Below are positions 3,323-37,728 of a DNA stretch of 64,000 nucleotides, in pieces; position 1 is the stretch's first letter, and each line of letters starts with the position of its first letter. A model generated the notes under the pieces. The model did not search any database. It worked only from the letters and a program-made list of their open reading frames with translations, and was not told the origin of the DNA. This DNA is from Thermoplasmata archaeon (GTDB lineage: Archaea; Thermoplasmatota; Thermoplasmata; Lutacidiplasmatales; UBA184), in contig DASRSW010000062.1 of assembly GCA_035656275.1 (NCBI GenBank), positions 986 to 64,985 of the forward strand, given 5' to 3'. The translations under genes were made by a program, and so were the position numbers.

Positions 3323-3346
3323 GTTCGAACTCGCCGACGAGCTCGG
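3323..3346 (-). other. tRNA 3'-end-like remnant (T-arm plus CCTTGTCAGG), putative att scar
   Basis: Minus-sense GCGAG-TTCGAAC-CTTGT-CAGGCGG. No matching 5' acceptor half found nearby. Confidence 0.35.
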
Positions 3347-3681
3347 AAAGCAATCTGCCCTTCGTCGAGGTCTTCCCCGGCGAGAGCCCCCGCGACCCGG
3401 AGCTGCGGTGGGGTCCGGTAGCGACGTGTCTCTGTGGAGGTCCCGCGCGAAAGGACTCACACGGCCGCGTCGCGGTGGGGCGCTCGTGAAGCTGAACGCT
3501 ACGCGGGCTGGGAGGGTCGATGGTTTCCCCATTGTCGGGAAACCGATTGGCCAACAGGGCAAGGATTGGAAGGTACTCAGCTCCGATTGAAGAAAACACG
3601 CGGCTGGTCAAGTCAGGGACCTCCCCCGCGGAGGATCGACTGAGGAGTCCAATGGCAGCCGATCTGACGTCGAGCGCGTAG

Positions 3682-4065
3682 CTACGCCTTCGAGAGCTCT
3701 TGTATCAGCCCTCCAAGGTCAGAGTTCAGGAGGCTGGTCCTTCGACTTAGGATCACTCGTGCGGCGCCGGTGCATGGATCGTCGGGGTCGAAGGGGGGGA
3801 TCTTGTAGAGCCTCGTCGACCTGTGGAACAGGTTGGCGTCTGCGACTTTCACAGATAGCGCCCGAGCTTGGTGGAGTGTCCTGGCAGAGATGACCGCCTC
3901 CACGAATCGCACGTCGGCTGGCCGGAGCCTCAGTCGGGCTGACTCGTGACCGAGCAAGGTCCGGTAATTCGACATGGCACTGCGGAACGTGGGGTCGATG
4001 CGTACTCCCTCTTTCCTAGCGCGCACCTGGACTAAGTCGATGACTCCTTTAGCTGAACGGGGCAT
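3682..4065 (-). CDS. Hypothetical protein (127 aa)
   Basis: ORF only. Confidence 0.3.
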   Translation of the reverse strand: MPRSAKGVIDLVQVRARKEGVRIDPTFRSAMSNYRTLLGHESARLRLRPADVRFVEAVISARTLHQARALSVKVADANLFHRSTRLYKIPPFDPDDPCTGAARVILSRRTSLLNSDLGGLIQELSKA

Positions 4066-4092
4066 ACGGGCCGTAATGTATTACGGGTTAAG

Positions 4093-4968
4093 GTGATTGT
4101 CTTGGATACCGAGGATTCACAAGCTAGCGAAACGCCTGCCCTGGACACGACCCCCCTGCCGGTAACTCCATCGAGAATGGGATCATCCGGCGGTCTCGGG
4201 CAAGGGCTGGTCGCTCAGCCGCCATCAGGAGCGACCATGGATGGCGCGTTATCTCAGAAGAGACGCACCGCGAACAAGGAAGGTAAGCCTTCGGAGCTGC
4301 AGACCAAGATCGCAGAGCTTCACGGGATTCTCGCGGTCGCGTCGGAGAATGGACTCTTCGCGAAGGGGGCGGCTGGAGAGCGTCACTTCGCGGCGTTAAA
4401 GACATCGCTCGAGCGAGCGTCGGTTCTCTCAGACGGTGAGGTTCCGAGTGAACACGAGGCATACTCCGCCCTCCAGGATTTCTACAAGGAACTGAGTGAA
4501 GCGCAGAATGAGGCGGGGTTTGGATGGCGGTTCGTCCAGCTGTACGCAGTCCCGGCGTGGATCTACCTGGTGCTTACTCCGTTGGCGGTCTACTTCATTC
4601 AGAACTGGTACCACCTCTTGCCAAGCTCGCCCATTCTCGAAGCATCAATATGGGGACTTCTGGGTGGCTGCCTGCAGGGTTTCTACTGGATCTGGCAACA
4701 AGTGAGCCGCGGACAATTCAGGGCACAGTGGGCCTTCTGGGTGCTCTCACTTCCCCCGGGCGGACTGATCTTCGGGGCGATTGCCTATCTGGTCGTCACC
4801 GGAGGATTGTTGTCGCTGTTCACCACGTCGCCGCCTGCCATCAACGAGACATCGGCCTTTCTTTTCTCCGCATTGGCCGGCTTCAGCTGGAAGGACTTTG
4901 CTCGCCTGCTGAAACAGTTCTGGGATCGACTGGGAACGGAACCTGCAAAAGGTCAAGCAACCAAGTGA
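4093..4968 (+). CDS. Hypothetical membrane protein (soluble N-terminal half, about 4 C-terminal TM helices)
   Basis: Hydrophobic segments from residue ~150 onward. AT-rich box about 20 nt upstream. Confidence 0.55.
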   Translation: MIVLDTEDSQASETPALDTTPLPVTPSRMGSSGGLGQGLVAQPPSGATMDGALSQKRRTANKEGKPSELQTKIAELHGILAVASENGLFAKGAAGERHFAALKTSLERASVLSDGEVPSEHEAYSALQDFYKELSEAQNEAGFGWRFVQLYAVPAWIYLVLTPLAVYFIQNWYHLLPSSPILEASIWGLLGGCLQGFYWIWQQVSRGQFRAQWAFWVLSLPPGGLIFGAIAYLVVTGGLLSLFTTSPPAINETSAFLFSALAGFSWKDFARLLKQFWDRLGTEPAKGQATK

Positions 4969-5046
4969 CTCGCTTAACGCGCGGGAGCCTCTGTTGACGA
5001 CGATCTCCTAGGCACAGAACCAGGGTGGGAACCCGGTTGGTCGAGT

Positions 5047-5150
5047 CCTGACAAGGATTCGAACCGCCCAGCGTTTCAAAAGCTCTGGATTCGAGGGTAG
5101 GCATGTTATGGGGAGTTTCGGGGATTCGAGAGTCCATCCCCGGGTGGTCG
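5047..5150 (-). repeat. Array of degenerate tRNA T-arm/3'-end-like remnants (GGTTCGAATCC-CTTGTCAGG plus two further CTCGAATCC-like copies)
   Basis: The minus-sense sequence contains CTCGAATCCCCG, CCTCGAATCCAGAG and GGTTCGAATCCTTGTCAGG within about 100 nt. The T-stem does not pair canonically and no 5' half was found. I interpret this as stacked att remnants. Confidence 0.4.
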
Positions 5151-5415
5151 ACCACCTTTGTCCTCGGGTGTTGGGCGAGATTTCGTACTCATCCTGCACG
5201 GCCCGCGTCTCGCCCGGGATTCTCGGATGCTCAGATTCAACGTTCGTTCTGCGGGGGATCGGCTGGACCCCAGTTGGCGAGTTGTGTTCCACCGAGGAGC
5301 GAATTCCACTTGCGCCCCTCATCAGGTCCTTCCGAAGGCACCTGCATCTTCCTGATTCGTCTGCTCGGTACGGCAAGGAAGGATTGCAACCGAACGACCT
5401 CTCGGCCCGGTATGA

Positions 5416-7107
5416 CTACGGGAAGAGGCCGGTGTCGGGAAGCGGATCAACTTGAATGGGTATGGCTCCGCCATAGGTCACCCGTGGAGTCGGATTGTCT
5501 CTGGACCCCGAATCAGGCTTGGAAACTGTCGAGTCGTTCGCCTTAAACACCCTATGGTAACGCAGCATCGCCTCATTCGCAGACTGAGCTCTACCGAGGT
5601 CCGTATACACCTCGATTAGCGCGGGCAATAGGACGAAGCCTTCCAGCGCCATGTAGTTCGCCTGAAGAATCCTGTCAGCTTCCTCCAAGTATGGTAGGGC
5701 TTGTGTGGGCATGCCAGCCACACGGTAAAGATTGCCGAGAAGGCTAGATAGTCGAGCCCTGATCGCCGGAGGTAGTACTGTTCGATATCGTTCTAGTAGG
5801 TCTTCGATAACCAGGATGCCCTCTGCGGCGCCATCCGGCTCTTCAAGGATGCAGTTGGCGTACAGCAGTTTGCATTGGGCTTCTAGCATCGGACTCGGAT
5901 TGTTCAGGAGGTCCAACAATTGTACTGCTGTTGCGCTGTACAGGAACATCCTGGCTCGCATCTGTTGCACACGGCGAGTTACATCGAAGGGGGTTGAAGT
6001 CTCTGTGGAGCCAAGTTGCACCTGTCGGATTGTCGCGATTCTTCGTCCCACGGCAACCGCCGCAATGTAGTTTGTAATCAGCCTGTCCTCGACAGATTCT
6101 GCTGTCAAACTCATGCGGCTAAGATCAGCGGAGGGGATTTCTACCATGGACTTGCCGGAGTCGAAGGTACCCCACCAGGCCGCCTCTGTTAGGTTGAGGC
6201 GTATCACCGTCTGGCAGAACTGACGGGCGTTCGATAGGTGATACTGCAGCTTGTTGAGCTTTAGTCGGGGACTGGCTTGATGGACCGCTTTAGGACGGAC
6301 GAAGTCCTCCGTGATGGAGAGTCTTGCCAGAAGTTTGGCCAGGAGCGCTCTCGTATCGCACTTGACAGCGGTTCCGTGTAGTGATCCCTTCAAGTCGCTC
6401 CTGAGAACTGCGTTCAGGTCCTCGACCTGGAACCCCGGCCCTGCCTCCTGGTGATTGACCAATATCAGTCTGCTATCAGTCGGACCGATGTCTCTGAGAG
6501 TTGGGTTAATGTCGAAGTAGTCAGAAAAGCTGTAACCAAGTACTAGCACGAGCCCATGCCCATCTTTTGCTAGGAGCTCTTCTAGACTTGAGCGGAGCTC
6601 CGGCCTGGCCTGATTACGAACAAGCTCCTCTGACGTGGCCTTAACGGAAGCGGGGTCAGAGGCTCGCCCGTGAAGATGGTCAACGTCCAGCCTGAACTCC
6701 TCAGTGGGGTCCAATCGAAACCGGCCCGACCGGCTAAGAGAATTGGCCGCTTTCTCCACAAGTTCATCAAAGTTTGTCGTCACTACCCGTCTGGTGCAGC
6801 CCGCCGACATAATCGCGGCGATGGCGTAGTGCTCGAACGTTGGCTCCGCCGATGAAAATACATCCAGCAGTTCGCCGTAGAAAGAACCACCAAGTGATCC
6901 GATTATCACCTCAAGCGGGAGCTGTCTCACTCGAGGAGGAATCGGGTCGAGCCACAGCGCCGACAAAATTGAATTCGAGATGCTGAGAGCACCAGGGATT
7001 CCCGATGGTATCGAGACTCCCGCACCTAACCATAATGCTAGCTCGCCGCGTCTCGCGGAGCCAGCCAGAATCTCGATGATACCGTCAACAGAGTCCGGAG
7101 TCGTCAT
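5416..7107 (-). CDS. SIR2-like (SIR2_2 / DHS-like NAD-binding) domain protein fused to a C-terminal TPR-like helical-repeat domain
   Basis: N-terminal motifs LWLGAGVSIPSGIP, VVTTNFDELVEKA, VDHLHG and LVLGYSFSDYFD match the defence-type SIR2_2 signature (GAGxS / TTNYD / LHG / GYSxxD). The C-terminal ~300 aa is a helical repeat. Confidence 0.75.
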   Translation of the reverse strand: MTTPDSVDGIIEILAGSARRGELALWLGAGVSIPSGIPGALSISNSILSALWLDPIPPRVRQLPLEVIIGSLGGSFYGELLDVFSSAEPTFEHYAIAAIMSAGCTRRVVTTNFDELVEKAANSLSRSGRFRLDPTEEFRLDVDHLHGRASDPASVKATSEELVRNQARPELRSSLEELLAKDGHGLVLVLGYSFSDYFDINPTLRDIGPTDSRLILVNHQEAGPGFQVEDLNAVLRSDLKGSLHGTAVKCDTRALLAKLLARLSITEDFVRPKAVHQASPRLKLNKLQYHLSNARQFCQTVIRLNLTEAAWWGTFDSGKSMVEIPSADLSRMSLTAESVEDRLITNYIAAVAVGRRIATIRQVQLGSTETSTPFDVTRRVQQMRARMFLYSATAVQLLDLLNNPSPMLEAQCKLLYANCILEEPDGAAEGILVIEDLLERYRTVLPPAIRARLSSLLGNLYRVAGMPTQALPYLEEADRILQANYMALEGFVLLPALIEVYTDLGRAQSANEAMLRYHRVFKANDSTVSKPDSGSRDNPTPRVTYGGAIPIQVDPLPDTGLFP

Positions 7108-7455
7108 GCTCCTGCCATTGAATTAGAGCGCAAACACTGTTTGAATCTTGGTTGCCCAGGCCCCCACGAGCCGCTTCTGTAATAGCACTCGGCCATTCCA
7201 ACGCCGCCCTCTCAAGCACTCGCGAGCACGATTCGACCGGCGGAAGGTGTTCCCGCCCAGACCCGAGGATCCCGGTGCTTTACCGAGACTAGTGCATCAA
7301 GCCGTCCCAAGCCTGGATGAGGAACCGAACCAGCTCCCTTCCCTGGGCCAGACCCTTGTCCGGTCGCCAACTTCGATGCCGAGTGCGAGTTCTCGTGATA
7401 TAACAGTCCTGGGGGGTTGAGATAGACCGACTTGAGGCAATCCGCCTAGCGCTTC

Positions 7456-8268
7456 CTACAACGTGCAGGTGACGGACTTCACATGGTGGAGGCCCACGAG
7501 GTCAGTGTACTCAACCGTAATGTCCAGCTGCTTCGGATCCTTGGTGAAATGGGACGAGTCGAGCTCAAATTCCGCCTTTTCACCTGCAGGAAGAACGGAA
7601 ACGTATGGCCTCCGATTAGCATCCCATTGACCGGTCGGACTTGAGAACCTCAGGGCGATCGTTACCTCCTCGGCGGGACCAAGGCCAAGGTTTCGGACCC
7701 CGACCCAGCGATGGTCCGCACGTATCAGATGCCCTTCGAATCGATAGTAGGGATCCATTGCAGGAGCGATCTTTGCGCGCTCAGTGCTGTGGCGCTCAGA
7801 CTCTGCCATGCGTTTCGCTTCCCCAGCTTCTGCAGTGAGCGAAACTATGCGGTCTTCCGCAGCGTGAAGGCGGTCCTCGAGCCGTCTTCTGTCTTCCGCG
7901 GCCTCTCGCCGCGTGTTCGTTACCTGCTCGCGAAGCTCCTTCTCGACGGCTTCGGCGGTCAGCTTTGCCTCCGAGGCTTCGCGTTGAACTCGCGAAATTT
8001 CCTGATCCTTCAGAGAAGAGTCTCTGCGCGAGGCATCCAACTCGTGTCGGAGGCGCGCGCTCCGCGAAATCGAAGCAACGAGGTAGAATCCGCCCAAGCC
8101 CAGAAGAGCGAGGAGCCCTCCGAAGGCGGATGCTTCGGATGGGTCTGCCCCAAAACGGCTGAGACTGTACGCAATAGCCGCAGCGATCCCTAGGATCGTG
8201 ATTACCGCTGCGAGGTACCCTAGAGGCCGGTCGGATTCTGAGAGCAGGCCCTGGGCTTCTCGCATCAC
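7456..8268 (-). CDS. Membrane-anchored coiled-coil protein (2 N-terminal TM helices, a long charged coiled coil, a C-terminal beta-rich domain)
   Basis: Two hydrophobic helices at residues ~18-65, then an E/R/A-rich heptad region. Confidence 0.55.
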   Translation of the reverse strand: MMREAQGLLSESDRPLGYLAAVITILGIAAAIAYSLSRFGADPSEASAFGGLLALLGLGGFYLVASISRSARLRHELDASRRDSSLKDQEISRVQREASEAKLTAEAVEKELREQVTNTRREAAEDRRRLEDRLHAAEDRIVSLTAEAGEAKRMAESERHSTERAKIAPAMDPYYRFEGHLIRADHRWVGVRNLGLGPAEEVTIALRFSSPTGQWDANRRPYVSVLPAGEKAEFELDSSHFTKDPKQLDITVEYTDLVGLHHVKSVTCTL

Positions 8269-8523
8269 GGCAGACCGTACCGCGAGTGGTGAGATAGAGA
8301 TATTGGGTTCCTATCAAGGAACGGTATCGTAGTGTCCGCGAAGTGTACTGGGTTTCTGCACGCGGCGGAAACCTGAGTGATGTCCTCGGCTGAGCTCGGT
8401 GGCCAACGACAAAAGAACTCTCCTGATGGTCCATGCACCTACACTCCTGCTGCCAATCTTGGGGGCGCTGAGAACCGCACTCCGTGACCGGTATCTTTGA
8501 AAGTTGAACAGGCCCGTTCAGAA

Positions 8524-8546
8524 CCCTCACAAGGATTCGAACCTGG
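8524..8546 (-). other. tRNA 3'-end-like remnant (CCAGG-TTCGAAT-CCTTG-TGAGGGT)
   Basis: Near-canonical T-arm (one mismatch). No 5' acceptor partner found within 150 nt. Confidence 0.35.
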
Positions 8547-8872
8547 AATAGAACTCGGTCCTCGAGGCCTCCCCAATCGTTCAAGTCTGGGCCGGCCTAT
8601 TCCTTGGGCTGGCACTCCTCGTCACTCGAACCTACGCCTTGCCGGTTGGTGCTGCTGGTAGATCTTCGGAAATCCCTGTCGCGAAATCCTGACTACCGAC
8701 CGTGTCGCAGCCACCTGGCTGAAGCACGTCTCCTAACCTGTCCGACCGCATCCTGGGCGCCTGGGGTGAAATGCAGGCGAGTCCCCTCGCAGATCCATCT
8801 CCGTCACGGTAAGCGAAGATGGGTCTCCAGGTTGCCGCAGCTTTGTTAGGCACAAACGCGAAATGCCTCTGA

Positions 8873-9127
8873 GTGAGTCCTCCATCGATGGCCGAGAAGG
8901 CATTCCGGGTGATCTACACCACACAGTGGCTCGAAGACGGGCGGCCCAAAGTCTACAGTGAGATTGTCTATGGGTTGGAGCCGGTGAGCACGGGTGAAAC
9001 ATTCAAGAAGCGGAAGATGGACGAGCACAAGGGGCTGGTAGTCCGGTTGGTCGCGGTCAACGAGATCCATTTCTCGCCCAAGGGCACACCAAGTGAACCT
9101 TCCATCAGGCTAGTCGTCGGAGACTGA
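8873..9127 (+). CDS. Small hypothetical protein (84 aa)
   Basis: ORF only. Protein-like composition. Confidence 0.25.
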   Translation: MSPPSMAEKAFRVIYTTQWLEDGRPKVYSEIVYGLEPVSTGETFKKRKMDEHKGLVVRLVAVNEIHFSPKGTPSEPSIRLVVGD

Positions 9128-9321
9128 AGCTGTCTCTTCTTCCGCCCCGACGCACGCATCTGCCCCCAGCTCTCGGGCAGCCCCTGTACCACGAACCGGC
9201 GCTCTCGAACAGCTCCGTCAATCTCCTGAAGTTTCCCTGAGCAAGAGTTCCGGCTTTCCGCCCTCGTGACATGGGTTGCCACGCGAGTGGTTCGAGGGCG
9301 GACCACAGCCCAGTTCGGCGG

Positions 9322-10359
9322 TCAGTCGGAGGTAGGAGCTGGATGAAAGCCTCGTAGTACGCTCACCATTCTTTCGATAGCCTCAATCGAGCGATAGACG
9401 GCGGGAATCTCGAATCTCCTCTGACTCTTGTGGATGATGTTATTCCTGATGTTGTAGACTTTCTCGACATCCGCAATCAGCTGGCTTACATCAGACCGCG
9501 CTTCAAGTACTTCGATAATGAACCTGGTGAGTCCGATTAGTGGAATGTTCCTGATGATCTCCTCGGCGTGGGTTCGCCTTTGCTCCTCCACTCCGCTCTC
9601 GGTTCCGAATCTAGACGCGAGATAGGCTTCGATCTCGGCTTCTAGCGCTATCACCAGCTCGATGTAGACCAGGTCGTATTCCCTAGTCACGTAGTGAATT
9701 CTGCATCTGGCGAGGTAGTTTCGTCTAAGCTGCGTGCGTCCGTCGTAGTCGATTGTCAGGATTCTGAATCTCTCAAGCTCTGCCCGACCAGCCGGCCAGT
9801 CAGCGGTGTAGCACAAGTCTAGGTAGACGATTGCTTCAGGGGGAGTTGTCTCGAGAATGAAGCGAATCTTGCGTAACGTCGGTAATGGGCCTAGGTCCGC
9901 ACTCTTCACGCGATAGGAGGTCTCCCAGTACCCTTCGGAGGCGGTATCGTCGATGGCGGCCGCGAGCCTTTCTTCCAGATTCGTTGTATCAAGGCGACCC
10001 GCCGAGGCCAATCCCAATTCGTAGTCGGAGTAGTCGAGCACTGCCAGTTCGACGGACTCGACCGGGATCCCCGCCGCTTCCGAAATCCACTTGTCAAGAT
10101 TCTGACGGGTCAGCCCGAGACCGTCTAGGCGGACAATGGCGGTACCCACCGTAGTCTCGTACCAACAGTCGAGTCCGTCATGCTCGCGAGACGGAGCGAA
10201 CGCCGCAGAATCGGGATTCGGCCGGCGAGAATCTAAGTCTATTTTCCGATCTGCAGGTCGGAATAGACAGCTCAGGGCGTGGTCGTCAGTCTCCGGGACC
10301 GCGTTTCGCCATTTCAACGCCGCTGAATCGCCTATCCAGAGAGTCGACCAATCCGCCAT
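9322..10359 (-). CDS. Hypothetical protein with C-terminal HEPN-like module (RNxxxH motif IRNNIIH)
   Basis: Helical C-terminal ~110 aa carries R-N-x3-H about 45 residues from the C-terminus. The N-terminal ~230 aa is an unknown domain. Confidence 0.6.
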   Translation of the reverse strand: MADWSTLWIGDSAALKWRNAVPETDDHALSCLFRPADRKIDLDSRRPNPDSAAFAPSREHDGLDCWYETTVGTAIVRLDGLGLTRQNLDKWISEAAGIPVESVELAVLDYSDYELGLASAGRLDTTNLEERLAAAIDDTASEGYWETSYRVKSADLGPLPTLRKIRFILETTPPEAIVYLDLCYTADWPAGRAELERFRILTIDYDGRTQLRRNYLARCRIHYVTREYDLVYIELVIALEAEIEAYLASRFGTESGVEEQRRTHAEEIIRNIPLIGLTRFIIEVLEARSDVSQLIADVEKVYNIRNNIIHKSQRRFEIPAVYRSIEAIERMVSVLRGFHPAPTSD

Positions 10360-10617
10360 CGCCGGGACAAAGGGCGCCGTCCCAAAGCGATTGTCTTGTA
10401 CCAGGTCCGGTGGGGCCTATTGACACGCGACTCGACCTACCTCGCCCGGCTCCGTGCGTCAATGCGCTGTTGCGAGGTCCCCTCTCAGACCCGTTTTGAG
10501 AAAGAGTGGCCCATCACATGCCGTCTCCGCCCGGGCTTCTCGCACCTCGGCCGTTACGGGCTCGACACGGTGTGCGGGCCGAGCGCACCATCCGAAAGGT
10601 GGCTTCAGGCGGCGCGA

Positions 10618-12895: not shown

Positions 12896-13720
12896 GTGCC
12901 ACTACGGCGCACAGGTGGGTCTATGCGACGAAATCCTCAAGAAGAAACTGCCGTCCACGTGAAAAGACGAATCCCAAGGGGAATGATCGGCCTCGGGGCC
13001 GTTGCCCTGGCGCTGCTAGTAGCAGTGTCGCCGTTGGCGTCGGCCAACTGGGTCAATGGGACTTGGGTGAGAATAGCGACAGCCTCTGTGGCGGGCCCGA
13101 CCGCAGGGAGTGGGGTCAACACCCCGACTCCCGGGCAGCCGACAGCCGTGGGCCCAATTCCCGTCAGGGTAACTTTCGGCTTTACAAGCACTTCGGGCCC
13201 GGCGATTGGGTGGGCGAACTACCATCAGCAGGCCACGGCCTGGGCCCTCCCCACTTTCGCTGCGTGGAAGGGGGTCGGGGCTAGCTACAATGTCAGCGTT
13301 CTCTTCGGTTACCAGATCAGGGCCAACGACGTCGTGGCAAGCGTGAACTGCGTGAACGGCGGGACAGCGAACGCGACCGCCATCATCATCGTCCAGCTTG
13401 CCATCTACGACGTGACCACCGGTACGTATGCAGCGGCGCTGGGCCCCCCAGGCGGGATACCTATCTGGCTTCCGTACCAGGTCAGCTGTACCACCGGCGG
13501 GTCCGCTACGGCTGGCAACCCGGCGATGAGTCTTCCTGCGCTGGGCAACCTGACGGGTCCAATCGGCATCCACTTGACCGCCGGAAATGTCTACCAGGTC
13601 GAGGGACTGATTGCGGCGTACGGGAGCGCTTACACCACGGCGGTGGGAGCCACGGCTTCGGCGACCGTCAACTTCCCCGCGGGCGATTACGTCGAGATCG
13701 CGAGCTCAAACGCGTACTGA
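12896..13720 (+). CDS. Secreted/surface glycoprotein paralog B (probable true start ATG 12924; the GTG at 12896 is a finder artefact)
   Basis: Signal-peptide-like MIGLGAVALALLVAVSPLASA. Sequons NGT, NVS, NAT, NLT. Paralogous to 133-966. Confidence 0.65.
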   Translation: MPLRRTGGSMRRNPQEETAVHVKRRIPRGMIGLGAVALALLVAVSPLASANWVNGTWVRIATASVAGPTAGSGVNTPTPGQPTAVGPIPVRVTFGFTSTSGPAIGWANYHQQATAWALPTFAAWKGVGASYNVSVLFGYQIRANDVVASVNCVNGGTANATAIIIVQLAIYDVTTGTYAAALGPPGGIPIWLPYQVSCTTGGSATAGNPAMSLPALGNLTGPIGIHLTAGNVYQVEGLIAAYGSAYTTAVGATASATVNFPAGDYVEIASSNAY

Positions 13721-18702: not shown

Positions 18703-19040
18703 TGACCCGCCTAGGGCCAGCTCCTCAGCCCATACAGCGGATCCCCGATACTCCGACCCCCGTCAGCCCCCTCATCTGGATGGTCAGCCGCCCACTCCAA
18801 GAAGGTGTCCGTCGCGGCCGCCACGCATTCGGGGTCGAGCACCAGCCGGCGGAGAAGGAAGCGGAGCTTCCCCAGGTCGACGTCCGCCGAGAGGCGACTC
18901 TTCAGCGAGCGGGCCGCGTGCCAGGAGCGGACCTTGGGGTTCTGGGGCAGCCCATGGCCGGGTCCAGGGCCGATATTCGCAGGCATTCCGGGGTTTCCAA
19001 ATCGGTCTAGTATTTGTGTATTCAGACCGCTCCGACCGAG

Positions 19041-19071
19041 GGGCGGGGACGGATTCGAACCGCCCGGCGGT
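19041..19071 (-). other. tRNA 3'-end-like remnant (GGCGG-TTCGAAT-CCGTC-CCCGCCC)
   Basis: Canonical T-arm with one G-U. The anticodon arm could not be folded and no 5' acceptor GGGCGGG was found. This may be an intron-containing or split tRNA that I could not resolve by hand. Confidence 0.35.
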
Positions 19072-19264
19072 TCAAGTATTGTGGAGGATGGCGAGGAGAC
19101 TGAATCGTCGGGACGGCACGCTCAATTCAGTGTCGACTTACGCGCCTCGCTCGCAGACTTCTATTCCCGGTCGAAGTGCAGAATTGGCGGGGCGACCGTC
19201 GACAGGGGCTCCCGATCCCAGGGCCTCTGAATCCAGGACGCAGTTCGTTGCCCACCCATCCTGG

Positions 19265-21039: not shown

Positions 21040-21680
21040 CTATGACTCTCTCGACTCCCGTGAGAGCTTCGGCGGATTTGTGGTCGTCAATGCAACCACT
21101 CGCAACCCCGCAGCGCGAGCGGACTCGATTCCGAGTGGTGCGTTCTCCAACACCAAGACTTCATCGGCATTGACGGCCAGCTTCTTCAGTGCAAGCAGGT
21201 ACGCATCTGGGTCGGGCTTTGTCCTCGAAACATCCTCGGCGGTCACAATCACTTTGAAAAGGCTCAGTATGGCCCGAGATTTCTGGTGACAACGTCGTGC
21301 CAATTGCCCGAAGCAAGCGCGAGGCTTACTTGATGCGCTTGGAGTTCGCGGATGACCCTCTCGGCATCAGCGTAGAGAGGCATCGTCCCGAGGAAGTGGA
21401 AGAGCAGCTGATGGAGCTCGCTCATCTAATCCAACTGTTCCTCCGTGAAACTGACCCCGTGGTCCTGTGCGACGATACTTATCAGGTCCCGGGATCGTCT
21501 ACCCTCATTCGCGAGGACTTCACCAGGAACGATGGCTAGACCGAACCGACGAAAGATGGAAAGGTACACCTCGGCGTTCAGTTCCATCGATTGGAAGAGA
21601 ACTGTGTCTCCGTCGAAGATGACCCCCCTTAGTCGCCGCCGGATTGTGTCGGGGCCTGGGGGATGACGAATCGACGCCAT
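21040..21680 (-). pseudogene. HAD-IA (beta-phosphoglucomutase-like) hydrolase pseudogene, split by a frameshift into ORFs 21426-21680 and 21040-21303
   Basis: The N-terminal fragment has a degenerate motif I (GVIFDGDTVL). The C-terminal fragment has KPDPDAY...VLVLENAPLGIESARAAG. The two ORFs are in different frames with a 123-nt gap. Confidence 0.55.
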
Positions 21681-22140
21681 AGCCCACAGTCAATCCGCCT
21701 GGGCGACCTTCATCCGGGACCTCGGGGCACCGCCCCCGAAGGTCCAGATCAGCCGCGGGGAGTTGTATTCGACCTGGACGGAACGCTGGTCCCGAGTCAC
21801 CACGACTTTAGGAAGATGCAGGACGCGATCATCTCTATCGCTGTTCGTACTGGCGCCCGGGAGAGGACATTGGTCGCCACCGAAAGTGTCGGAACGAGTC
21901 AGATTCTGAGCGACGCACGGAGAGAGTTGATCCGCGCAGAAGTCTCGACGAAAGCCCTTGCACGATTTCACGAGGAGGTGGCATTCGTTGTAGACGCAAT
22001 AGAGATGACCGCGGGCAATCGGACGACGCTCCGACGCGGGGCGAAGGAACTCCTCGAGTACTTGAAAGGGCAGGGCTACCGGCTCGGGCTCTTCACCCGC
22101 GCATCGGGCCCATTCTGCGTTGAAATCCTGACAAGGATTC
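21663..22140 (+). pseudogene. Truncated HAD hydrolase gene (motifs I and II present, motifs III/IV missing). The reading frame runs into the tRNA-like remnant at 22127.
   Basis: GVVFDLDGTLV and GYRLGLFTRAS are present. No K/DD motifs follow before the att-like sequence. Confidence 0.45.
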
Positions 22141-22147
22141 GAATCCA
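22127..22147 (-). other. tRNA 3'-end-like remnant (CCTGACAAGGATTCGAATCC), shares a 17-18 nt core with 5047-5066
   Basis: Exact match of CCTGACAAGGATTCGAA to 5047-5063. The T-arm is non-canonical (palindromic GGATTCGAATCC). Confidence 0.35.
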
Positions 22148-22575
22148 GTCCCGCCGCGTGTCACAGCGTTTTTGAAGGGTTCGGCTGATTGGCACGGGCG
22201 GTGCCCTCTAGCTCAACCTCGGGACACAGTATCGTGTCCTGTACACCACTCGACTGGAGCTTTTTCCACCGTCGGGCCGTGGCCGATGTTCTGACTACGG
22301 CCAAGCGGTGGCAATCTGCCATGATGAGCGGCGAACTATGACTAACTCGTGCTACTTTCACCACAGCGAAGGACGAAGAGGAAGATCAGCGTCGAGTCAA
22401 GGGGGGTGGAGCAGGTAGTTTACCGCTCCGGAGCTAAAATCCATAGAAACGCTGCGTCACGCGCAGCCATGCACTGATTCGCCGACGCTCCCCCTCCAAT
22501 GCCGAACTCGGCGGATCGACCTACTACAACTGTGCATTGTGCTCACCATGGTGAGGGCCCTGCGAGCCTTCACAC

Positions 22576-28490: not shown

Positions 28491-29270
28491 ATGCCGAAGG
28501 ACGTACCGACTTCTGAGCAACCGTCGAGAGCGGCCGACCCAGCGTCCGATTCTGTCGACGGTGAACGTGGCGTCGCTCTTTACATTCGTGTGAGCACGAA
28601 CGATCAGAGCCTGGAAGGACAGGAACGCGAACTGCGACAGGAGGCGACGAGCCGTGGCTGGACGGTCGTGGCCGTCTACAAGGAGAAGGCTTCGGCCAAT
28701 GGCAAGTCGGCACGCCATGCCTACGACAGGCTGATTCGAGACGCCGGCCGACCGCGCCGACCCTGGCGGCATCTGCTGGTCTGGGCGCTTGACAGGTTCA
28801 GCCGCGATGAGACCTTCACTCGGGCGACCCAGACGATACTCGACTTGGAGCGCACGGGCGTCAGATTCCACTCCCTAAAGGAGCCGACGTTGGACACTCC
28901 GGACGACGGACGACCCAACCTGGGTCGGGATGGCCTCCTCGCCCTGCTCCCGGTTATCGCCAGTTTCGAGTCGAGGCGTCGCTCGGAGAGAGTCCGAGTC
29001 GCGATGAGAGAGATTCGAGAGGGTCGCCGTCGCACGCGATCGGGTCGCCCACCGGGTCGACCGCGGAGGCTCACACCGGAGAAGGTGCAGCAGATTCTTC
29101 GCTTCCGGTCGCAAGGCCTCCCCTGGTCAACGATCGTTCAACGAGTAGGCTTACCCTCGGGCACATGCCGCTACGCCTTTTCGATGGCCAAACGCGCGGC
29201 TGTCGAGAACTCCGGTATGTGCAACGCGGGGGCGAGTAGCGGGAGTCCTGAAGGTCCTCCAACGGCATGA
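28491..29270 (+). CDS. Serine recombinase (resolvase/invertase family) with C-terminal HTH
   Basis: ALYIRVSTNDQSLEGQ with catalytic Ser. LLVWALDRFSRD. VRFHSL.EP.LDT. C-terminal HTH (WSTIVQRVGL). Confidence 0.85.
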   Translation: MPKDVPTSEQPSRAADPASDSVDGERGVALYIRVSTNDQSLEGQERELRQEATSRGWTVVAVYKEKASANGKSARHAYDRLIRDAGRPRRPWRHLLVWALDRFSRDETFTRATQTILDLERTGVRFHSLKEPTLDTPDDGRPNLGRDGLLALLPVIASFESRRRSERVRVAMREIREGRRRTRSGRPPGRPRRLTPEKVQQILRFRSQGLPWSTIVQRVGLPSGTCRYAFSMAKRAAVENSGMCNAGASSGSPEGPPTA

Positions 29271-31350: not shown

Positions 31351-31486
31351 TCCGGAACCTCCGTAGACGCTGAGAGTTAGCGGGTGAGATAAGCCCCCGG
31401 CGGTCCCGATGTCCCGCCCGAACCGGTCTCCCCGGTGGTTGCCCTCGGCGGTAGGTTCATAACCGGGCTATCGTCTCAACTCCGCC

Positions 31487-32254
31487 GTGAGCCTCGCCTA
31501 CGATGTCCTCGACCGGTATCTCTACAAGGAGGACGTTCAGCAGCTCGCCCGCGATCGAGGACTTCCAACTAATCGTCCGAAGGATGAGCTGATTGCCACA
31601 CTCCTCGGGTCGGGGCGATTCGTCCCGGCAGAGGCACTCCGGTACCTGAACAAACGGGAACTTCGCCAGATCTGCCGTGAGTACCTCTTACCAGACGAAG
31701 GAGGCCGCGAAGTCCTCTTCCGGAGAGTACTGGCCGCGATCTTCGCCGGAGAGAGAACGGACCTAGCCGAGGAGGTGCCCGACGTAGACGATGAAGATAG
31801 CGATGAAGAAGAGACCGAACCGGGGAATGCAAACATGGGAGAGGAGGAGAATCACCGCGACAAAGGCGGACCTGGACCCCCGAAACGGCGTACGTCTCTC
31901 AGGTGGCCGGCTAGTGAGGCCCCGGTGCCACGGGGTGAGAATCTTGAACCAGGCGCGGCTCTCGGGTTCATACGGATGCCCCCCGCCCCCTGGCCCACCT
32001 CTAATCCCTCGGCCTCGTACGCTCTGGCACAAGACGTGTCTCGAGAACATCCGGATTCCACCGGGCCGTGGGCGGTCGCGTCGATTGTCGCAGGAGCAAT
32101 CGTGGCAGCCGGGTTCTATCTCCTCATTCCGGCACTTGGCCTCGGGGAGGGCCTTGCGGCCGCTATCACTCTGGCGATAGTCGTCGCGGCGGCTTTGATG
32201 CTAACCCGACAGCGGTGGGTTCCGTGGCTCGCGGGACTTGGTCAATCCTCGTAG
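31487..32254 (+). CDS. Hypothetical protein: N-terminal SAP-like helix-extended region, acidic linker, C-terminal TM anchor
   Basis: VQQLARDRGLPTNRPKDELIATLL resembles a SAP motif. DDEDSDEEETE acidic tract. C-terminal hydrophobic helices. Confidence 0.5.
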   Translation: MSLAYDVLDRYLYKEDVQQLARDRGLPTNRPKDELIATLLGSGRFVPAEALRYLNKRELRQICREYLLPDEGGREVLFRRVLAAIFAGERTDLAEEVPDVDDEDSDEEETEPGNANMGEEENHRDKGGPGPPKRRTSLRWPASEAPVPRGENLEPGAALGFIRMPPAPWPTSNPSASYALAQDVSREHPDSTGPWAVASIVAGAIVAAGFYLLIPALGLGEGLAAAITLAIVVAAALMLTRQRWVPWLAGLGQSS

Positions 32255-32390
32255 GATGGAACGACTCATAGACCGCCGTAGTCGAACGCGCCCTACTCCC
32301 CCTAGCGTCAGCAGAGTTCATCCCACCTTTAAGCCGGACCGATGGAAGTGTACCGAATCCTGCTGGATGGTGACCAGCAAGACGACCTAG

Positions 32391-33836
32391 CTAACGTCGC
32401 GAGACTAGGCCAATCACGCGCTGCTGAAAGGCCGGGTCCCGAACTTCTGAGAGCTTGGCTGACGAGTACGCTCTCAGCGCTTTCTGGAACACTGCGTTCG
32501 TCGTCCTGCCTTCAAGAGACTTAGCCAAAGTCATGAAGCGGGAGGCTCGTGTGCTATCTCCTATTGCCTGCCGAATGTGGTCCTCTCTTGGGGACTGTAT
32601 GAACTCGACGATCTCTTCGTCCTGGAAGACGCTAATGAGAGTGTCGTAGATTGGCTTTGCGATGAAGGACACCCCGAACCTGTTTCCAAGTCTGCAGATT
32701 ACGAGGGTTTGTACGTAATCCTCGACTACGTCTGGAGGGATTGCCCCGCTCTTCGGAACGAGTCGTAACAGTTCTCTGGCGTGCGGCTCTTCATTGAAGA
32801 AGTTGTCCCACGCGAAATGTGCGCTGCGCAACTCCTGTATGCAGCTCGCCATCTCAACTGCTAGTTGACCCGTCGGAAGGTACCCGAGTCCGTCGATTCG
32901 GGACAGAAACCTGCGTGCGAGGGCGGCGCGGTCCGTTTCGCCGTTTGCAGCAAGAGTGCCGTACTTGATTCCGATCCCGTGCCGCGCGGACTCGCCGCAG
33001 CGACCCCAAATCGACTGGGCAATGAAATCTACGTTGGTTCGAACTCGTTCGTCAAGGTCCTTATCCACGTACATTCCGAAGACCGCCTGAACCAAGGAGT
33101 GAGCAAAGTCGTCGGGGAGTCCCTTGATGCTGGCCTGTATGGGCTTTGCCTCCCTCTCGGTTAGGGTCGTGGTCCGGAGACTTGTCAGAAGTCGTTTCAG
33201 CTCGACCAATGGACCTTCGGATGGGGCAGCCTGGACATTCCTCAGACAGGTTTCCAACCACGAGACCAAGCTGATGCCCGTAATCTCATTCAAGTTCGGG
33301 TGCGCTGCGCTGGCAAAGTTCCTCATGTCGCGTATGAAGTCCAGTTGCCGATACGCGATGTCGGAGAGAAGGCCAATTTCCTTGCAGCCCCGAATAAGGT
33401 CCCAGTCGCGCAAATTGGCCAGGTCCTCCACTGCTTTGAATTTCAGTCGCTCTGCGGCGTTCGTCACAGTCGCATCGAAGAAGTAAGTCAGATCGAACAG
33501 TACCACTCTGTCACGAAGAGTTACGACCGTCGCATCCCAGAGGTAGTTCAGTGCGGCGTCGAACAACCCTACCGCACACGCGGCAGTGAACTTCGAGATG
33601 TAGAACGCCTCAGAACGCTGTTCCGACTTTAGTACCGAGACGGTCTCCGGTAGTAGAGAAAATACCTTTCGTCTCTCCGGGAGCGGGGCGAGAATGTCTC
33701 TTGTCGGCAGATCAAGCGCCTTTAGGTAGGATGTGAGATCTGAATCGAGCGAGGCAATCTGAGACTCGACGGGTTCGCTAACAACGAGTGCCTTTGAACC
33801 GGACTTACTCTTGGCCGCTTCTGCCATTTGCGCCAA
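32391..33836 (-). CDS. Hypothetical protein (481 aa) containing an R-N-x6-H-P motif (FIRDMRNFASAAHPN)
   Basis: Long ORF in the lower-GC island. The HEPN-like motif is suggestive only. Confidence 0.6.
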   Translation of the reverse strand: MAQMAEAAKSKSGSKALVVSEPVESQIASLDSDLTSYLKALDLPTRDILAPLPERRKVFSLLPETVSVLKSEQRSEAFYISKFTAACAVGLFDAALNYLWDATVVTLRDRVVLFDLTYFFDATVTNAAERLKFKAVEDLANLRDWDLIRGCKEIGLLSDIAYRQLDFIRDMRNFASAAHPNLNEITGISLVSWLETCLRNVQAAPSEGPLVELKRLLTSLRTTTLTEREAKPIQASIKGLPDDFAHSLVQAVFGMYVDKDLDERVRTNVDFIAQSIWGRCGESARHGIGIKYGTLAANGETDRAALARRFLSRIDGLGYLPTGQLAVEMASCIQELRSAHFAWDNFFNEEPHARELLRLVPKSGAIPPDVVEDYVQTLVICRLGNRFGVSFIAKPIYDTLISVFQDEEIVEFIQSPREDHIRQAIGDSTRASRFMTLAKSLEGRTTNAVFQKALRAYSSAKLSEVRDPAFQQRVIGLVSRR

Positions 33837-34983
33837 TCATGTAGCAGGAGTATGATTGCCTTTCGCAGCCGACCTCGATCGCAAATCTCGGCCACCAGAT
33901 CCTGGGCGGGTCGCCCTCGGTCAATCTCGATTTACACCAAATAGTCGGCCGCCGAAAGGCCCGTCGGAATCCACTGCGTACGTGTACCGGAAGATAGCGC
34001 ATCTAGTCCTTGAGGTCGTGTGCCCAGCTGCATTTAGAGTCGGATTCAGTTTCCTTCCAACATCCGGCTGAGAGACCAATCCATTCCCTCGGCCGGCCCC
34101 ACTCCCTCTCGAACGCCCGAATCTCGAATGGAAAATGTCTTCATCGCTTGCCCATTACCGCGTCGGAATCCATTCAGGAAGCGAAGCCGACGTGGGAGTC
34201 GTTTAGGGGTCGGAGAATCATCCCCGTTCTTGGTGAAATCCACGAGCACATGGTCCGCGCTCGCGTTGAAGCGCGTAGGAACACCGCAGCCTTCGCCGAG
34301 GCGCTTCCGGTGCTAGCAGCGTTTCTGCTCGAAACCGCGCCACCAGAGGTCGTATCGACGTGCCGAGACGAGCCCACCTGTTTCCCGCTCGGTCTTCCCC
34401 TCAATGCCGCCCACTACTAGAGCGAGGGAGGGTTGCCACTCACCAACTACTTTGGAGCGAACGGCGAGCTTCCCCCAGAGGCCGCGCGAGAGGACTACTA
34501 TCTCAGCAGTCGGAGCTTCGCGAGCCGAGTAACCATGGGTATGGTTGATCGGGGTGCGACGATGTTCGCATGCCTCTCAAAGGCGATGCACGGTCGCAGT
34601 GGAGGCCGTCTCCAGCTCTGGACTCCCGATACCGAACGGACGACAGTGTTACTTGCTCGATAGACTTCGACGAGCCGGATTGGACTCCCAGATCTTCGCT
34701 CGAGAGCCAGGTTTGGGAGCGGAAAGCTCGATCCCCCTTCGGGGCATTCCGAGTCTCGATGCAGCTCTCATCGATTCTGATCGAACCCTCCTCGGAGTAG
34801 AAGCCATTAGAGATTCTCTCCTTGGACGTTCACATTGGCCAGTGGAGTCGCGGCTGCAAGACAGCTGTGAACCGTTAGGCTAAGATTTGATTCTCGTTGC
34901 CGTGCGTCTGTTAGAGGCTAAGGCGTCACACAGTAGCTAGGACCAAGTTCTTTTACCCTGATGAACTCGGAGGCATCAGGGGA

Positions 34984-36123
34984 ATGTTGCGTCAGGGAAA
35001 GAAGGACCTCAAGAAGCTCCTAAGTCGATTTAGTCGCACTGCCCTGGTCGAGATTCTGGATCACCTCGGAATCGACGCCAAGGCACCCACGCGCGCTGCG
35101 ATACTCGACTCTCTAGTCCGAAAACAGTCGGAGACGGCGCTAAGAATTGTAAGAACATACCAGCGTCTCACTGGCGTTTCGTTGAACCTTGCGGTCGACC
35201 AGCTCTACCTACACGACCCCTCGCTTGGCCCGGTCGTCCGAGACTCGAAGAACAAGCCGGACCTCGTCCGGAGGCTCTTTCTTTCGGACAGGACGGAGGC
35301 TCTCGAGTCCATCGCCTCATTCGTTAAGTTCGCTAGGAAGAAGAACGTCTCGCCGCTCACTTTCGAAGGCAACGCAGTCCGTGAGCTCGACCAAAAAGGA
35401 GTTGAGAGGTTGATCCAACGAGCGATAGATCGAATCAACCCTGGTAGACCCCGCCCAATCCTTCTTGACCGTGTGGAAGTCGCAGCGGAGGTCGGTAGGG
35501 TCAAGGTGGCGCTTTGGCGAGAAGGAGGGAAGAGGCACGTTCGGCAGCACCCCGCACGCGTTGGACGTGGGGCAGCCGTGGAGCATGACGACTACCCGCT
35601 TCGACCCCACGTGATTGAGGTTAGCCTCAAGGAAGGAAGGATTCGCACGACGTTCCGAAGTACCGACCGTGACGGAGAGGGTGTGCTGCGGGCGGTGACA
35701 GAGTCATTCATAACGTACTCTGCACCCCCGGCACGGTCGCGGTTTCTTTCGAATCCTTTCGATGCGGATGAAGCCGAAGAGCTCAAGCGACGCATCGGAG
35801 CATTGAGAAGGAGTCTACGGGTCGACGATTCCCGAATTGCTCTTCTCGACGCTCTAACCACCGCAAAGAAGAATCTGATCGCATTCAACAGCCTCCAGAC
35901 TGAAGGTAATCTGAAGAAACTCGAGGTCCGAGCCGACGATGCCGACAAAGCGCTCAGGGCTCTCGGGGCCAGGGTCGATCTTCTCCAAACGGCCAAAAGC
36001 CACGACTACGAATTGCGATTCGATGATGGGCGCACGATCCGAGTCTCACCTTGGAGGGTCGGTTTGACCGGAATCTTCACACCCGCCGAAAGGGAATCGG
36101 TCGAGCTTATCTTTTCAGAATGA
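34984..36123 (+). CDS. Hypothetical protein (379 aa), first gene of a two-gene operon
   Basis: Its stop overlaps the start of the next gene (ATGA). Confidence 0.6.
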   Translation: MLRQGKKDLKKLLSRFSRTALVEILDHLGIDAKAPTRAAILDSLVRKQSETALRIVRTYQRLTGVSLNLAVDQLYLHDPSLGPVVRDSKNKPDLVRRLFLSDRTEALESIASFVKFARKKNVSPLTFEGNAVRELDQKGVERLIQRAIDRINPGRPRPILLDRVEVAAEVGRVKVALWREGGKRHVRQHPARVGRGAAVEHDDYPLRPHVIEVSLKEGRIRTTFRSTDRDGEGVLRAVTESFITYSAPPARSRFLSNPFDADEAEELKRRIGALRRSLRVDDSRIALLDALTTAKKNLIAFNSLQTEGNLKKLEVRADDADKALRALGARVDLLQTAKSHDYELRFDDGRTIRVSPWRVGLTGIFTPAERESVELIFSE

Positions 36124-37571
36124 GCCTTGCCAACCTCGCCCAGACCCTCGATTTGGTCCTCTCCCTTCCCAAGGGCCAAACCATTCCCGGTAGAAGCCCC
36201 CTTGCAAGGCGAACGGAGACGAAAGCCGCAGTAGCGGCCCAGGTTCTGTCTCGGACCTCACAGAGGGTCTACTGCGCCGAACACGAAACCGACTGCGAAG
36301 TCGAGCGACGGGGGGGTGCTCTGGTCGCATATCATGCGGAGGGCGGCGTTCACCAGTTCGAGGTGACTGAGGAGGACACGTTCCACTACGTCGTATCGTT
36401 CCCAGAAACGGTTCGCTTCACTTCTAAACGCCTGTTTGGGGATAGTGCAACCGTTTCAGAAGTGTCTGAAAATCATGACATGGCGTCCGCGCTTGTCGAA
36501 GTCGGAAGGGAACGCATTCGGCTCATACTCGTGCCGAAGGCATCACGGGGTACGGAGGGGGCGATCTACAGCAGGCTGGCGGAAATGACGGGCACTCGCG
36601 CCGCCGGGATCATCGCGTTTGACCTCGACATCGACAAGTGCTCGGGCCCCGTGCACCTCCTGAGCAAGGGCTACGCAGGGATTTGCCTGACTTCATTCTT
36701 CGAGGAAGCCGGCTATGCCTCGTCGTTTAGCCGAGAGTGTCTTCAACGCGCAGGCATTGAGCGCGTAAGTCTGGATCTCTTTGGCTCTGCTCACGCGAGC
36801 ATCGGTTACGATATCGAGCCGGCCGTGTGCTCCGACACCAGCCGCTTTGTAGGTAGCCTTCTGGAGAGTTGTAGGGCTCATGAGTGGAAGGCCTATGAGA
36901 GGCTCTGTAGATTCGCACTCTCTCGATTGTATGCATCGCCGCTCGAAGGATTCGGAGCCGAGGACTCCGGAAGGCTCCCCGACTCAGTAGCCATCTTACC
37001 CGACAACAATGGGCGCCCGGACCGGTTCGTCATCATCGATTCGAAGTCGCTACTCTCGGCCAGACGCGAACGGTTTCGCTTTGAAAGGACCGACCCGGCC
37101 AAATATCTCAGCTACGTTCAGAATGCAGATGCGCTTTCAAATAGAATAGATTTGCATCGGGTTACCCTTCTTTTCGTAGCCCCCGAGTACTCTCCGGAGA
37201 ATTGTGAGGCGTTTGTATCGGACTTCAGAACGGAGCGGGAGAAGGCCCGATTGCAACTCCCCACGGACGTCGTTTTCCTTACCCACACTGCACTTGCTGT
37301 ACTCTATCTGACCTTTGCCAGCCCAACTCACTCTGTGGTCCTCAAGAGCAAGGACCCTCATGGAGAATTCGAGAGACTAATGATATCACCGCGGGAACTT
37401 CAGATCAAGCATCTGGTTGATGGCGGCGCACCATGCCCTAGATTTCAAGGCGAGGGCTATGTTATTCTGCACCCGGATGACATTGGACCCATCTTCAATC
37501 ACATTCTCCAGAACCCTGACTACTTCGCGGCTCACTATGAGACTTACAGAAGACTTTCAAAGCAACTCTAG
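36120..37571 (+). CDS. Hypothetical protein (about 484 aa) with a PD-(D/E)xK-like motif (GRPDRFVIIDSK)
   Basis: Start moved to the ATG overlapping the upstream stop. P-D ... I-I-D-S-K fits the restriction-endonuclease-like core. Confidence 0.6.
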   Translation: MSLANLAQTLDLVLSLPKGQTIPGRSPLARRTETKAAVAAQVLSRTSQRVYCAEHETDCEVERRGGALVAYHAEGGVHQFEVTEEDTFHYVVSFPETVRFTSKRLFGDSATVSEVSENHDMASALVEVGRERIRLILVPKASRGTEGAIYSRLAEMTGTRAAGIIAFDLDIDKCSGPVHLLSKGYAGICLTSFFEEAGYASSFSRECLQRAGIERVSLDLFGSAHASIGYDIEPAVCSDTSRFVGSLLESCRAHEWKAYERLCRFALSRLYASPLEGFGAEDSGRLPDSVAILPDNNGRPDRFVIIDSKSLLSARRERFRFERTDPAKYLSYVQNADALSNRIDLHRVTLLFVAPEYSPENCEAFVSDFRTEREKARLQLPTDVVFLTHTALAVLYLTFASPTHSVVLKSKDPHGEFERLMISPRELQIKHLVDGGAPCPRFQGEGYVILHPDDIGPIFNHILQNPDYFAAHYETYRRLSKQL

Positions 37572-37700
37572 GGGGCTCCTATCCTCGCAGGCGCCTTCGT
37601 TGCGGAACTTGTGTTCAACGCCGGCACACTGGCCATATAAGTGTAAGGTGGTGAAGGGGCGACTTCAGCGGGTGTAGCTCTCCGCAGTGGTCATATCTTG

Positions 37701-37728
37701 CGCAGGGATTCGAACCCTGATTCGACTC
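37701..37728 (-). other. tRNA 3'-end-like remnant (CAGGG-TTCGAAT-CCCTG with a partially duplicated GTCGAATC just upstream)
   Basis: Perfect 5-bp T-stem in minus sense. No 5' acceptor partner. Confidence 0.4.

Follow-up and report, generated by a model that had tools for sequence, protein, structure and literature searches.

In a 64,000-nucleotide (nt) stretch of contig DASRSW010000062.1 from a Thermoplasmata archaeon, hereafter the window, six short sites share a core resembling the T-loop of a tRNA. They lie in a foreign island anchored at a tRNA-Thr gene and are designated c1–c6. We tentatively interpret these sites as decayed att-type junctions from past site-specific recombination among the modules of a composite island, one arm having been captured from a HAD-family phosphatase gene.

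T-loop-like core sites and their arms

The core, GGATTCGAA(CC), is the reverse complement of the T-loop GGTTCGAATCC and occurs six times in a single orientation, which is that of tRNA-Thr. With up to two mismatches allowed, CCTGACAAGGNTTCGAA was matched at 5047, 8525, and 22127 (three matches with 0.03 expected), and a further copy with a 1-nt deletion was found at 3316–3331; the repeat family reported in a first-pass annotation of the window is thus real. The minus strand carries the exact 11-mer GGTTCGAATCC, which is the commonest T-loop 11-mer, at 5055, 8533, 19051, and 37706; a version differing at one position lies at 22135. The arm–core–arm unit (A-O-D) is approximately 45 nt long. Five of the six sites are intergenic (c3 and c4 between tandem minus-strand genes, the others between convergent genes), the exception being c5, located within a HAD open reading frame (ORF). 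The blocks between the sites are 1.7–15 kb long and contain multiple genes on both strands.

The core was also evaluated as a dispersed repeat of the REP (repetitive extragenic palindromic) or MITE (miniature inverted-repeat transposable element) kind. The 20-kb host part of the window contains a single chance-like copy, at 48074 within a gene, and across approximately 450 kb from 33 related loci GGTTCRAATCC was confined to genuine genes for tRNA-Thr and tRNA-Met. The clustering thus seems to be specific to this island. The heptamer GATTCGA at first seemed to be widely enriched; this was rejected, the extra copies being unrelated coding sequence.

All six sites are located on the minus strand. 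Site c1 (3316–3331) reads CCTGACAAGG-TTCGAA and comprises left arm A and the core with the 1-nt deletion; its right arm is unrelated to those of the other copies. Site c2 (5046–5079), TCCTGACAAGGATTCGAACCGCCCAGCGTTTCAA, joins arm A, identical to c5 over 18 nt, with arm D, and is a hybrid without T-stem pairing. It is followed by two degenerate core copies on the same strand (5087–5130; GGATTCGAG at 5087 and 5122), 32 and 35 nt past c2. The stack of three T-loop copies described earlier at 5047–5150 is evident as GGATTCGAR at 5055, 5087, and 5122; however, the last two have just GGATTCGA in common. Site c3 (8511–8543), GGCCCGTTCAGAACCCTCACAAGGATTCGAACC, has a left arm homologous to positions 22107–22143 of the HAD gene and a near-dyad, CAAGG/CCTGG, around ATTCGAA. 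Site c4 (19040–19076), GGGGCGGGGACGG-ATTCGAA-CCGCCCGGCGGTTCAAG, has a complete T-arm-like dyad and shares right arm D with c2. Site c5 (22126–22146), TCCTGACAAGGATTCGAATCC, lies within the HAD ORF, where it corresponds to the codons I-L-T-R-I-R-I. Site c6 (37703–37725), CAGGG-ATTCGAA-CCCTG, is a perfect 5-bp dyad with a 7-nt spacer, and a second GATTCGA follows 12 nt on.

Flanks were assigned to classes using TTCGAA as the anchor. Left arm A (TCCTGACAAGG) is present in c1, c2, c3, and c5, with 10–12 nt identical among c1, c2, and c5. The left arms of c3 and c5 agree at 17 of 21 nt in one alignment; an alternative, which extends back to the HAD codons G-P-F, spans 37 columns with 31 shared nt and a 6-nt gap that keeps the frame. 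These two alignments are mutually exclusive. Right arm D matches between c2 and c4 at 14 of 16 nt in register and is weakly recognizable in c5, with indels; c2 and c5 align, again with indels, on either side of the core. The similarity of c2 to c4, of c3 to c5, and of c2 to c5 thus extends beyond the 17–18-mer outside which the copies had been said to diverge immediately.

Sites c2 and c5 are therefore of the A–core–D type, while c4 has a different left arm, c1 and c3 have different right arms, and the remaining arms are unrelated. Since the partner arm is unrelated in each pair, several independent arm switches have occurred at or beside one core, a pattern that random breakage would not yield. 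In this general sense, calling the sites recombination scars was reasonable: their arms reassort at the core.

The c6 dyad and that of c4 (GACGG-ATTCGAA-CCGCC, with one G-T pair; GGCGG TTCGAAT CCGTC on the minus strand) both have 5 bp around a 7-nt spacer. The arms of c3 pair at four of five positions, and the hybrids c1, c2, and c5 lack a dyad. Inverted repeats around an overlap of 6–8 bp, as in tyrosine-recombinase core sites, are thus present in c4 and c6 and nearly so in c3, and the reassortment of arms at the overlap, as between att sites of these enzymes, was observed. A T-stem-loop layout is one class of core site for tRNA-targeting integrases (PMC8371274).

The strong hairpins of c4 and c6 could instead suggest a functional minus-strand cis element, either a T-arm-like hairpin acting in RNA processing, stability, or termination, or a binding site for a regulator, at the ends of genes. 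The intergenic position of the sites, often at convergent gene ends, and the stacking of core copies at c2 and c6 are consistent with this, as is a weak match of c6 to the T-arm part of the tRNA-like mascRNA model (15.8 bits, E = 3.4). Nevertheless, no Rfam family matched c1–c6 above noise, a hairpin is impossible for c1, c2, and c5, the placement relative to neighboring genes is inconsistent (tandem at c3 and c4, convergent elsewhere), and the motif is absent from related genomes. We regard such a function as very improbable.

The HAD gene and the origin of arm A

The HAD-family phosphatase ORF containing c5 (21663–22175, plus strand) encodes 170 aa and lacks approximately 85 C-terminal residues, its 15 homologues being 236–263 aa long; its truncation, noted earlier, was thereby corroborated. 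A profile of the homologues aligned the protein up to residue 163, across the motif (FCVEILTRIRIQS versus FcraaLaktglas), and when the last 18 residues were replaced with random translated island DNA, an equal score was obtained in just 13 of 1500 trials. The arm A codons ATC CTG ACA AGG match those of the HAD family. Thus, the "T-stem" and "acceptor" at c5 are the gene's own sequence: arm A, including the CCTTG T-stem half and the CAGG acceptor, is HAD coding sequence. The explanation that a tRNA remnant truncates the gene does not hold, since the motif consists of the HAD codons I-L-T-R and the break in the gene lies at the core or immediately after it.

A conserved glycine of the family is replaced by CGA (Arg) in the core at c5, while the homologue in locus L190 lacks the motif, and similarity to the family is lost after codon 163. 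A second, HAD_2-type gene (21052–21647, minus strand) is the divergent partner of the first and contains internal stop codons. The divergent pair is intact in L190 (4990–6717), which is syntenic with window positions 21052–22130; this synteny halts inside the HAD gene at about 22130–22150, at the motif, which establishes that c5 coincides with a genuine breakpoint. Simple tandem accretion into the HAD gene was ruled out on geometry, the A-arm copies being on the wrong side of its 5' part.

These data also bear on the possibility that the A-type copies are pseudogene debris: scattered duplicated pieces of the HAD gene end, spread by illegitimate recombination, with a coincidental T-loop likeness arising from the codons AGG ATT CGA A and without any recombination function. 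The region is pseudogene-rich, c5 is in the HAD frame and scores as HAD, c3 aligns to HAD positions 22107–22143 with an in-frame 6-nt gap, and c2 aligns with c5 on both sides of the core, all of which fits this explanation. However, random breaks would not hit or adjoin the same core in c1, c3, and c4. Moreover, c4 and c6 combine the exact 11-mer with T-arm dyads and have no HAD-like arm, and approximately 0.02 such occurrences are expected by chance per 44 kb; the replacement of the family glycine exactly in the core, with the motif absent from L190, suggests that the core is foreign to the HAD gene. We consider debris an unlikely source of these copies.

The reading as relic att junctions is favored because the motif is non-random and strand-biased, the sites are mostly intergenic, arms are shared in register by the core, c4 and c6 form dyads, and c5 coincides with a breakpoint. 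According to this scheme, the original unit would have been a tyrosine-recombinase core modelled on the tRNA T-arm, with inverted repeats of approximately 5 bp and the 7-nt overlap ATTCGAA (TTCGAAT in the tRNA sense), an architecture that c4 and c6 would retain. Strand exchange within the overlap would have swapped arms and produced hybrids such as c2 (A + D), c4 (E + D), and c3 (A + B). Arm A comes from the HAD coding sequence and not from a tRNA; the gene, severed at the core or immediately beyond it, would have been copied together with the site, presumably via imprecise excision or a look-alike secondary site. The resident integrase, using the tRNA-Thr 3' end, would have brought in the older mosaic or would simply adjoin it.

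Several results weigh against this scheme. A cognate recombinase for the c-sites was not identified in the window, and neither reciprocal products nor a flanking element with its own integrase nor an empty site was found. Conservative recombination alone cannot multiply arm A to four copies; the scheme therefore also requires either duplication or the replication of an element after its excision. The HAD similarity may run 2–3 codons past the core (I/L, Q/E, S/S), which would shift the break out of the overlap by a few nt. The similarity between the right arms of c3 and c6 was not significant (p about 0.17). None of the G+C steps at the six sites was unusual, so the inter-site blocks, proposed earlier as six separate cassettes, have no independent compositional support. 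Contigs of the same sample from Logan cross c4 and c5 unbroken, with no sign of present activity.

Look-ups of the genes adjoining c2 and c6 for population variants returned nothing. The island genes were absent from the 33 related loci, where the same cassettes or empty sites had been sought, and the SIR2 gene of the island (5416–7107) has too few close homologues for an empty-site comparison.

Relation of the sites to tRNA genes and tRNA 3' ends

ARAGORN and Rfam at its gathering threshold identified tRNA-Thr as the only tRNA across the window, and Rfam applied to short stretches at E ≤ 10 gave no tRNA match at c1–c6. This negative carries weight because a positive control, the intron-bearing initiator tRNA-Met (tRNA-iMet) of the related locus L004, was detected by Rfam at 23.6 bits. 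Intron-aware ARAGORN with relaxed settings called 26 tRNAs across the window, c3, c4, and c6 included; the majority of these calls were judged spurious. The structures called for c4 and c6 were poor, with mismatched acceptor stems and weak D-arms, and ARAGORN called nothing on the extracted c3 segment. Complete tRNAs, intron-bearing or split, were rejected for all sites, no credible tRNA having been obtained with either program. None of c1–c6 is a tRNA gene, with or without introns, and the first-pass statement that no site contains a complete tRNA stands after these intron-aware checks.

The first-pass annotation had explained the sites as displaced tRNA 3' ends left by serial integration, each inter-site block representing one cassette. 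The use of the commonest T-loop 11-mer as the core and the common orientation with tRNA-Thr agree with this, and archaea are known to harbor elements integrated in tandem at a single tRNA (PMC8371274); the interval between tRNA-Thr and tRNA-iMet is, in addition, a variable hot spot in relatives. Nevertheless, c1–c6 showed no resemblance to the tRNA-Thr 3' end (GGGTTCAAACCCCTCCCGCGGCT at its terminus) beyond the generic T-loop, and blastn-short found no repeat of that end of at least 13 nt anywhere in the window. Serial integration would leave copies of the tRNA-Thr end; thus, the sites did not arise as scars of integrations at the neighboring tRNA-Thr.

The tails of the sites were also compared with those of tRNAs. 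The CCTTG half followed by an acceptor-like (C/G)AGG, attributed to all six sites, is present in c1, c2, c3, and c5, but c4 has CCGTC-CCCGCCC and c6 CCCTG-CGCAAG. For comparison with tRNA positions 49–73, c4 reads GGCGGTTCGAATCCGTCCCCGCCC: its T-arm is complete, and the GC-rich 7-mer after it is a possible acceptor strand, which speaks for a tRNA origin. The c6 tail, CGCAAGA, is not acceptor-like, and that of the A type belongs to the native coding sequence of the HAD gene; both points speak against such an origin.

The A-type 18-mer common to c2 and c5 (TTCGAATCCTTGTCAGGA in the tRNA sense) had 22 matches among 241 million metagenome records, none of them in a tRNA gene; this is approximately the number expected by chance according to our own rough estimate of the size of the collection. 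One copy, in L088/L100, has a paired acceptor and T-arm, yet it was rejected, as the tRNA covariance model does not recognize it. The 20-mer of c3 (GGTTCGAATCCTTGTGAGGG) is present in two phage tRNA genes, for tRNA-Gln and tRNA-Arg, a point in favor of tRNA ends; however, the patterns of c2/c5, c4, and c6 were not found in the viral contigs scanned. There, GGATTCGAACCGCCC had 78 matches, some in tRNA genes and others in unrelated sequences, and the D arm accompanied none of them.

With one arm common to four of the six sites, these are not independent tRNA scars, and the sites show no G+C steps. The foreign island, its tRNA anchor, the intact integrase, the junction sites, and the reassortment of arms all survive from the earlier proposal, while its claim of tRNA 3' ends was not upheld. 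Serial integration into tRNA genes is weakly supported, and displaced tRNA ends separating single cassettes are an improbable origin of c1–c6.

In relatives, the gene for tRNA-iMet, located after tRNA-Thr, was found to carry an insertion of 27–30 nt in the D-loop, following GTAGTCAGG. It was present in L004 (20582–20685), L009, L012, L013, L016, L017, L021, L025, L026, L029, L032, and L034. The insertion forms a hairpin, the stem of which varies between genomes by compensatory changes, and looks like a non-canonical intron. ARAGORN missed or miscalled every inserted copy, and Rfam saw the L004 copy only below the gathering threshold.

The tRNA-anchored island and comparison with known systems

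The window belongs to a high-GC soil archaeon of the Thermoplasmata, with a G+C content of 68–72% to the right of tRNA-Thr compared with 55–64% in positions 1–44.4 kb. Approximately 35 ORFs of the left part were compared with the 33 related Thermoplasmata loci, and none except the integrase had a counterpart downstream of tRNA-Thr. These two results identify the left 44 kb as foreign DNA, an island with tRNA-Thr(GGU) (44437–44509, minus strand) as its anchor. The earlier identification of this gene as the only tRNA of the window, beside a tyrosine integrase, was borne out. The enoyl-CoA hydratase encoded next to it (44530–45390, minus strand) is 61–73% identical to the products of soil and peat Thermoplasmata genes from metagenome-assembled genomes (MAGs), and the order of hydratase and then tRNA-Thr(GGU) is conserved in relatives (28 of the 33 loci). 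As the tRNA 3' end is not repeated in the window, the far end of the island lies outside it.

Across the relatives L002–L034, tRNA-Thr is separated by 0.9–9.7 kb from the next tRNA, tRNA-iMet on the same strand, and many of their MAG contigs stop shortly past tRNA-Thr. The variable distance and the contig ends mark this interval as an insertion hot spot. A Logan contig of the same sample (L001, SRR12347819) is 100% identical to window positions 44460–51080 and ends within tRNA-Thr at 44460, 23 nt short of the tRNA 3' end, which suggests a repeat or strain variation beginning inside the gene. In the host part, a Nop-domain (Nop5/Nop56-like) protein is encoded at 47863–48897 and kept in 30 of the fetched loci; the fibrillarin gene is not adjacent. 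This protein served to mark the host as archaeal. Within the island, the ORFs at 6–1007 and 12896–13720, both Pfam-negative, contain stretches 71–77% identical in DNA (repeat families D1–D3, spacing 12793) and are likely paralogues; a relative with 62% identity is present in L017.

The tyrosine integrase (42909–44393, minus strand) is intact, consists of 494 aa, and adjoins tRNA-Thr. An integrase 71% identical to it occupies the same position in L002. Its family had 84 matches in our search, nearly all from Thermoplasmata MAGs or metagenome contigs. Members with 45–73% identity, in the window, L002, L021, and L185–L188, are located directly after tRNA-Thr (the window and L002), Cys, Gly, Leu (twice), and Met. 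The family, with at least five targets, therefore changes its tRNA target readily, which makes a sister element with a TTCGAAT overlap plausible; the T-loop of tRNA-Thr, TTCAAAC, differs from this overlap at two of seven positions. The stretch GTTCATATCC(C), located between the end of the tRNA and the beginning of the integrase gene, is conserved in the copies examined (the window, L002, and L185–L188) and looks like a promoter or a P'-arm element.

The sole tyrosine integrase of the window abuts tRNA-Thr and none of the c-sites, so the arrangement of a cognate integrase next to its site was not observed at c1–c6. The ORFs scanned held no integrase fragments next to the sites, and PHROGs and PADLOC searches for such fragments or for known defence systems yielded nothing near the sites beyond SIR2-type and weak HEPN matches. 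Apart from the tyrosine integrase, the one recombinase recognized across the window was a small serine recombinase with a resolvase N-terminal domain (28491–29270, plus strand), and nothing tied it to the c-sites.

Next to the integrase lies a conserved cargo module (38672–41847) consisting of a 543-aa fusion of a P-loop kinase (AAA_33) with adenylosuccinate synthetase, a 224-aa DUF7002 protein, and a 288-aa ORF. The module was also found in L187 (12114–15264), beside an integrase 67% identical to ours at tRNA-Leu(CAG); there, a 272-aa counterpart of the 288-aa ORF, DUF7002, and the kinase fusion follow the integrase. The homology with L187 covers window positions 38708–44460 and stops 1 kb before c6. 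The module may represent nucleotide-modifying or defence cargo. A sister island at tRNA-Leu(CAG) in L188 (11449–21281) contains SLATT, TIR (ThsB-like), UDG, and SIR2_2 genes. Defence genes seem to gather in the islands of this integrase family, that of the window with its SIR2 gene included.

Integron arrays (intI, attI, attC), reported from archaeal MAGs among others, have an integrase at one end and sites in the same orientation; their attC sites possess paired R and L boxes and a GTTRRRY core, and their cassettes are short, mostly of a single ORF, and uniformly oriented. The window likewise has an integrase at one end and same-orientation sites between gene blocks. Unlike in integrons, the c-sites have neither the attC architecture nor GTTRRRY, the blocks of 1.7–15 kb hold several genes on both strands, and the integrase is a tRNA-targeting one with its own att at tRNA-Thr; thus, the island is not an integron. 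A bolder proposal is that the T-arm-like sites are still usable and form an archaeal cassette platform, on which a tRNA-targeting integrase family would shuffle multi-gene defence and cargo modules and capture chromosomal genes such as HAD via look-alikes. If true, this platform would be functionally integron-like but built on tRNA mimicry and with much larger cassettes; we consider it highly unlikely.

The integrase Int-pTN3 recombines short tRNA-derived sequences in the 5' half of tRNA genes and produces inversions between inverted copies (PMC5495485). Comparable off-site action on tRNA-like sequences could have yielded hybrids such as c2 and the break in the HAD gene; in contrast to Int-pTN3, the c-sites are all direct copies. 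The sublocation classes of tRNA att sites defined by Williams in 2002 include a T-stem-loop class (summarised in PMC8371274). The c-sites share with it a 7-nt loop as the overlap, flanks forming a T-stem dyad (c4, c6, and nearly c3), and the exchange of arms at or beside the overlap, but they lie outside tRNA genes, and the window yielded no cognate integrase for them.

If the relic-junction reading is right, the window offers a worked example of the growth and decay of an archaeal tRNA-anchored island, in which T-arm-like core sites link the modules, a fragment of a host-type gene was captured by one of them, and the junctions outlast their recombinase. It also calls for caution, as a T-loop 11-mer and a few additional bases are insufficient for calling a tRNA remnant: the "acceptor" here is protein-coding. 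By-products of the analysis are the tRNA-switching integrase family, the kinase-fusion/DUF7002 module, and the apparent non-canonical D-loop intron in the tRNA-iMet of this lineage, missed by standard finders.

Islands anchored at tRNA genes, with tandem or composite elements, are known in Sulfolobales, Thermococcales, Methanococcales, and Thaumarchaeota (PMC8371274; also PMC6563490). The island of the window differs from them in that its internal repeats are not the 3' end of the anchor tRNA, one repeated arm is derived from a protein-coding gene, and neither a second integrase nor split integrase fragments of the SSV type were found in the window. It resembles them in its defence-type and miscellaneous cargo, in internal short repeats oriented as the tRNA, and in modules common to another island (L187). 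It adds one more case to a known class of object: archaeal islands that are composite, anchored at a tRNA, and in decay.

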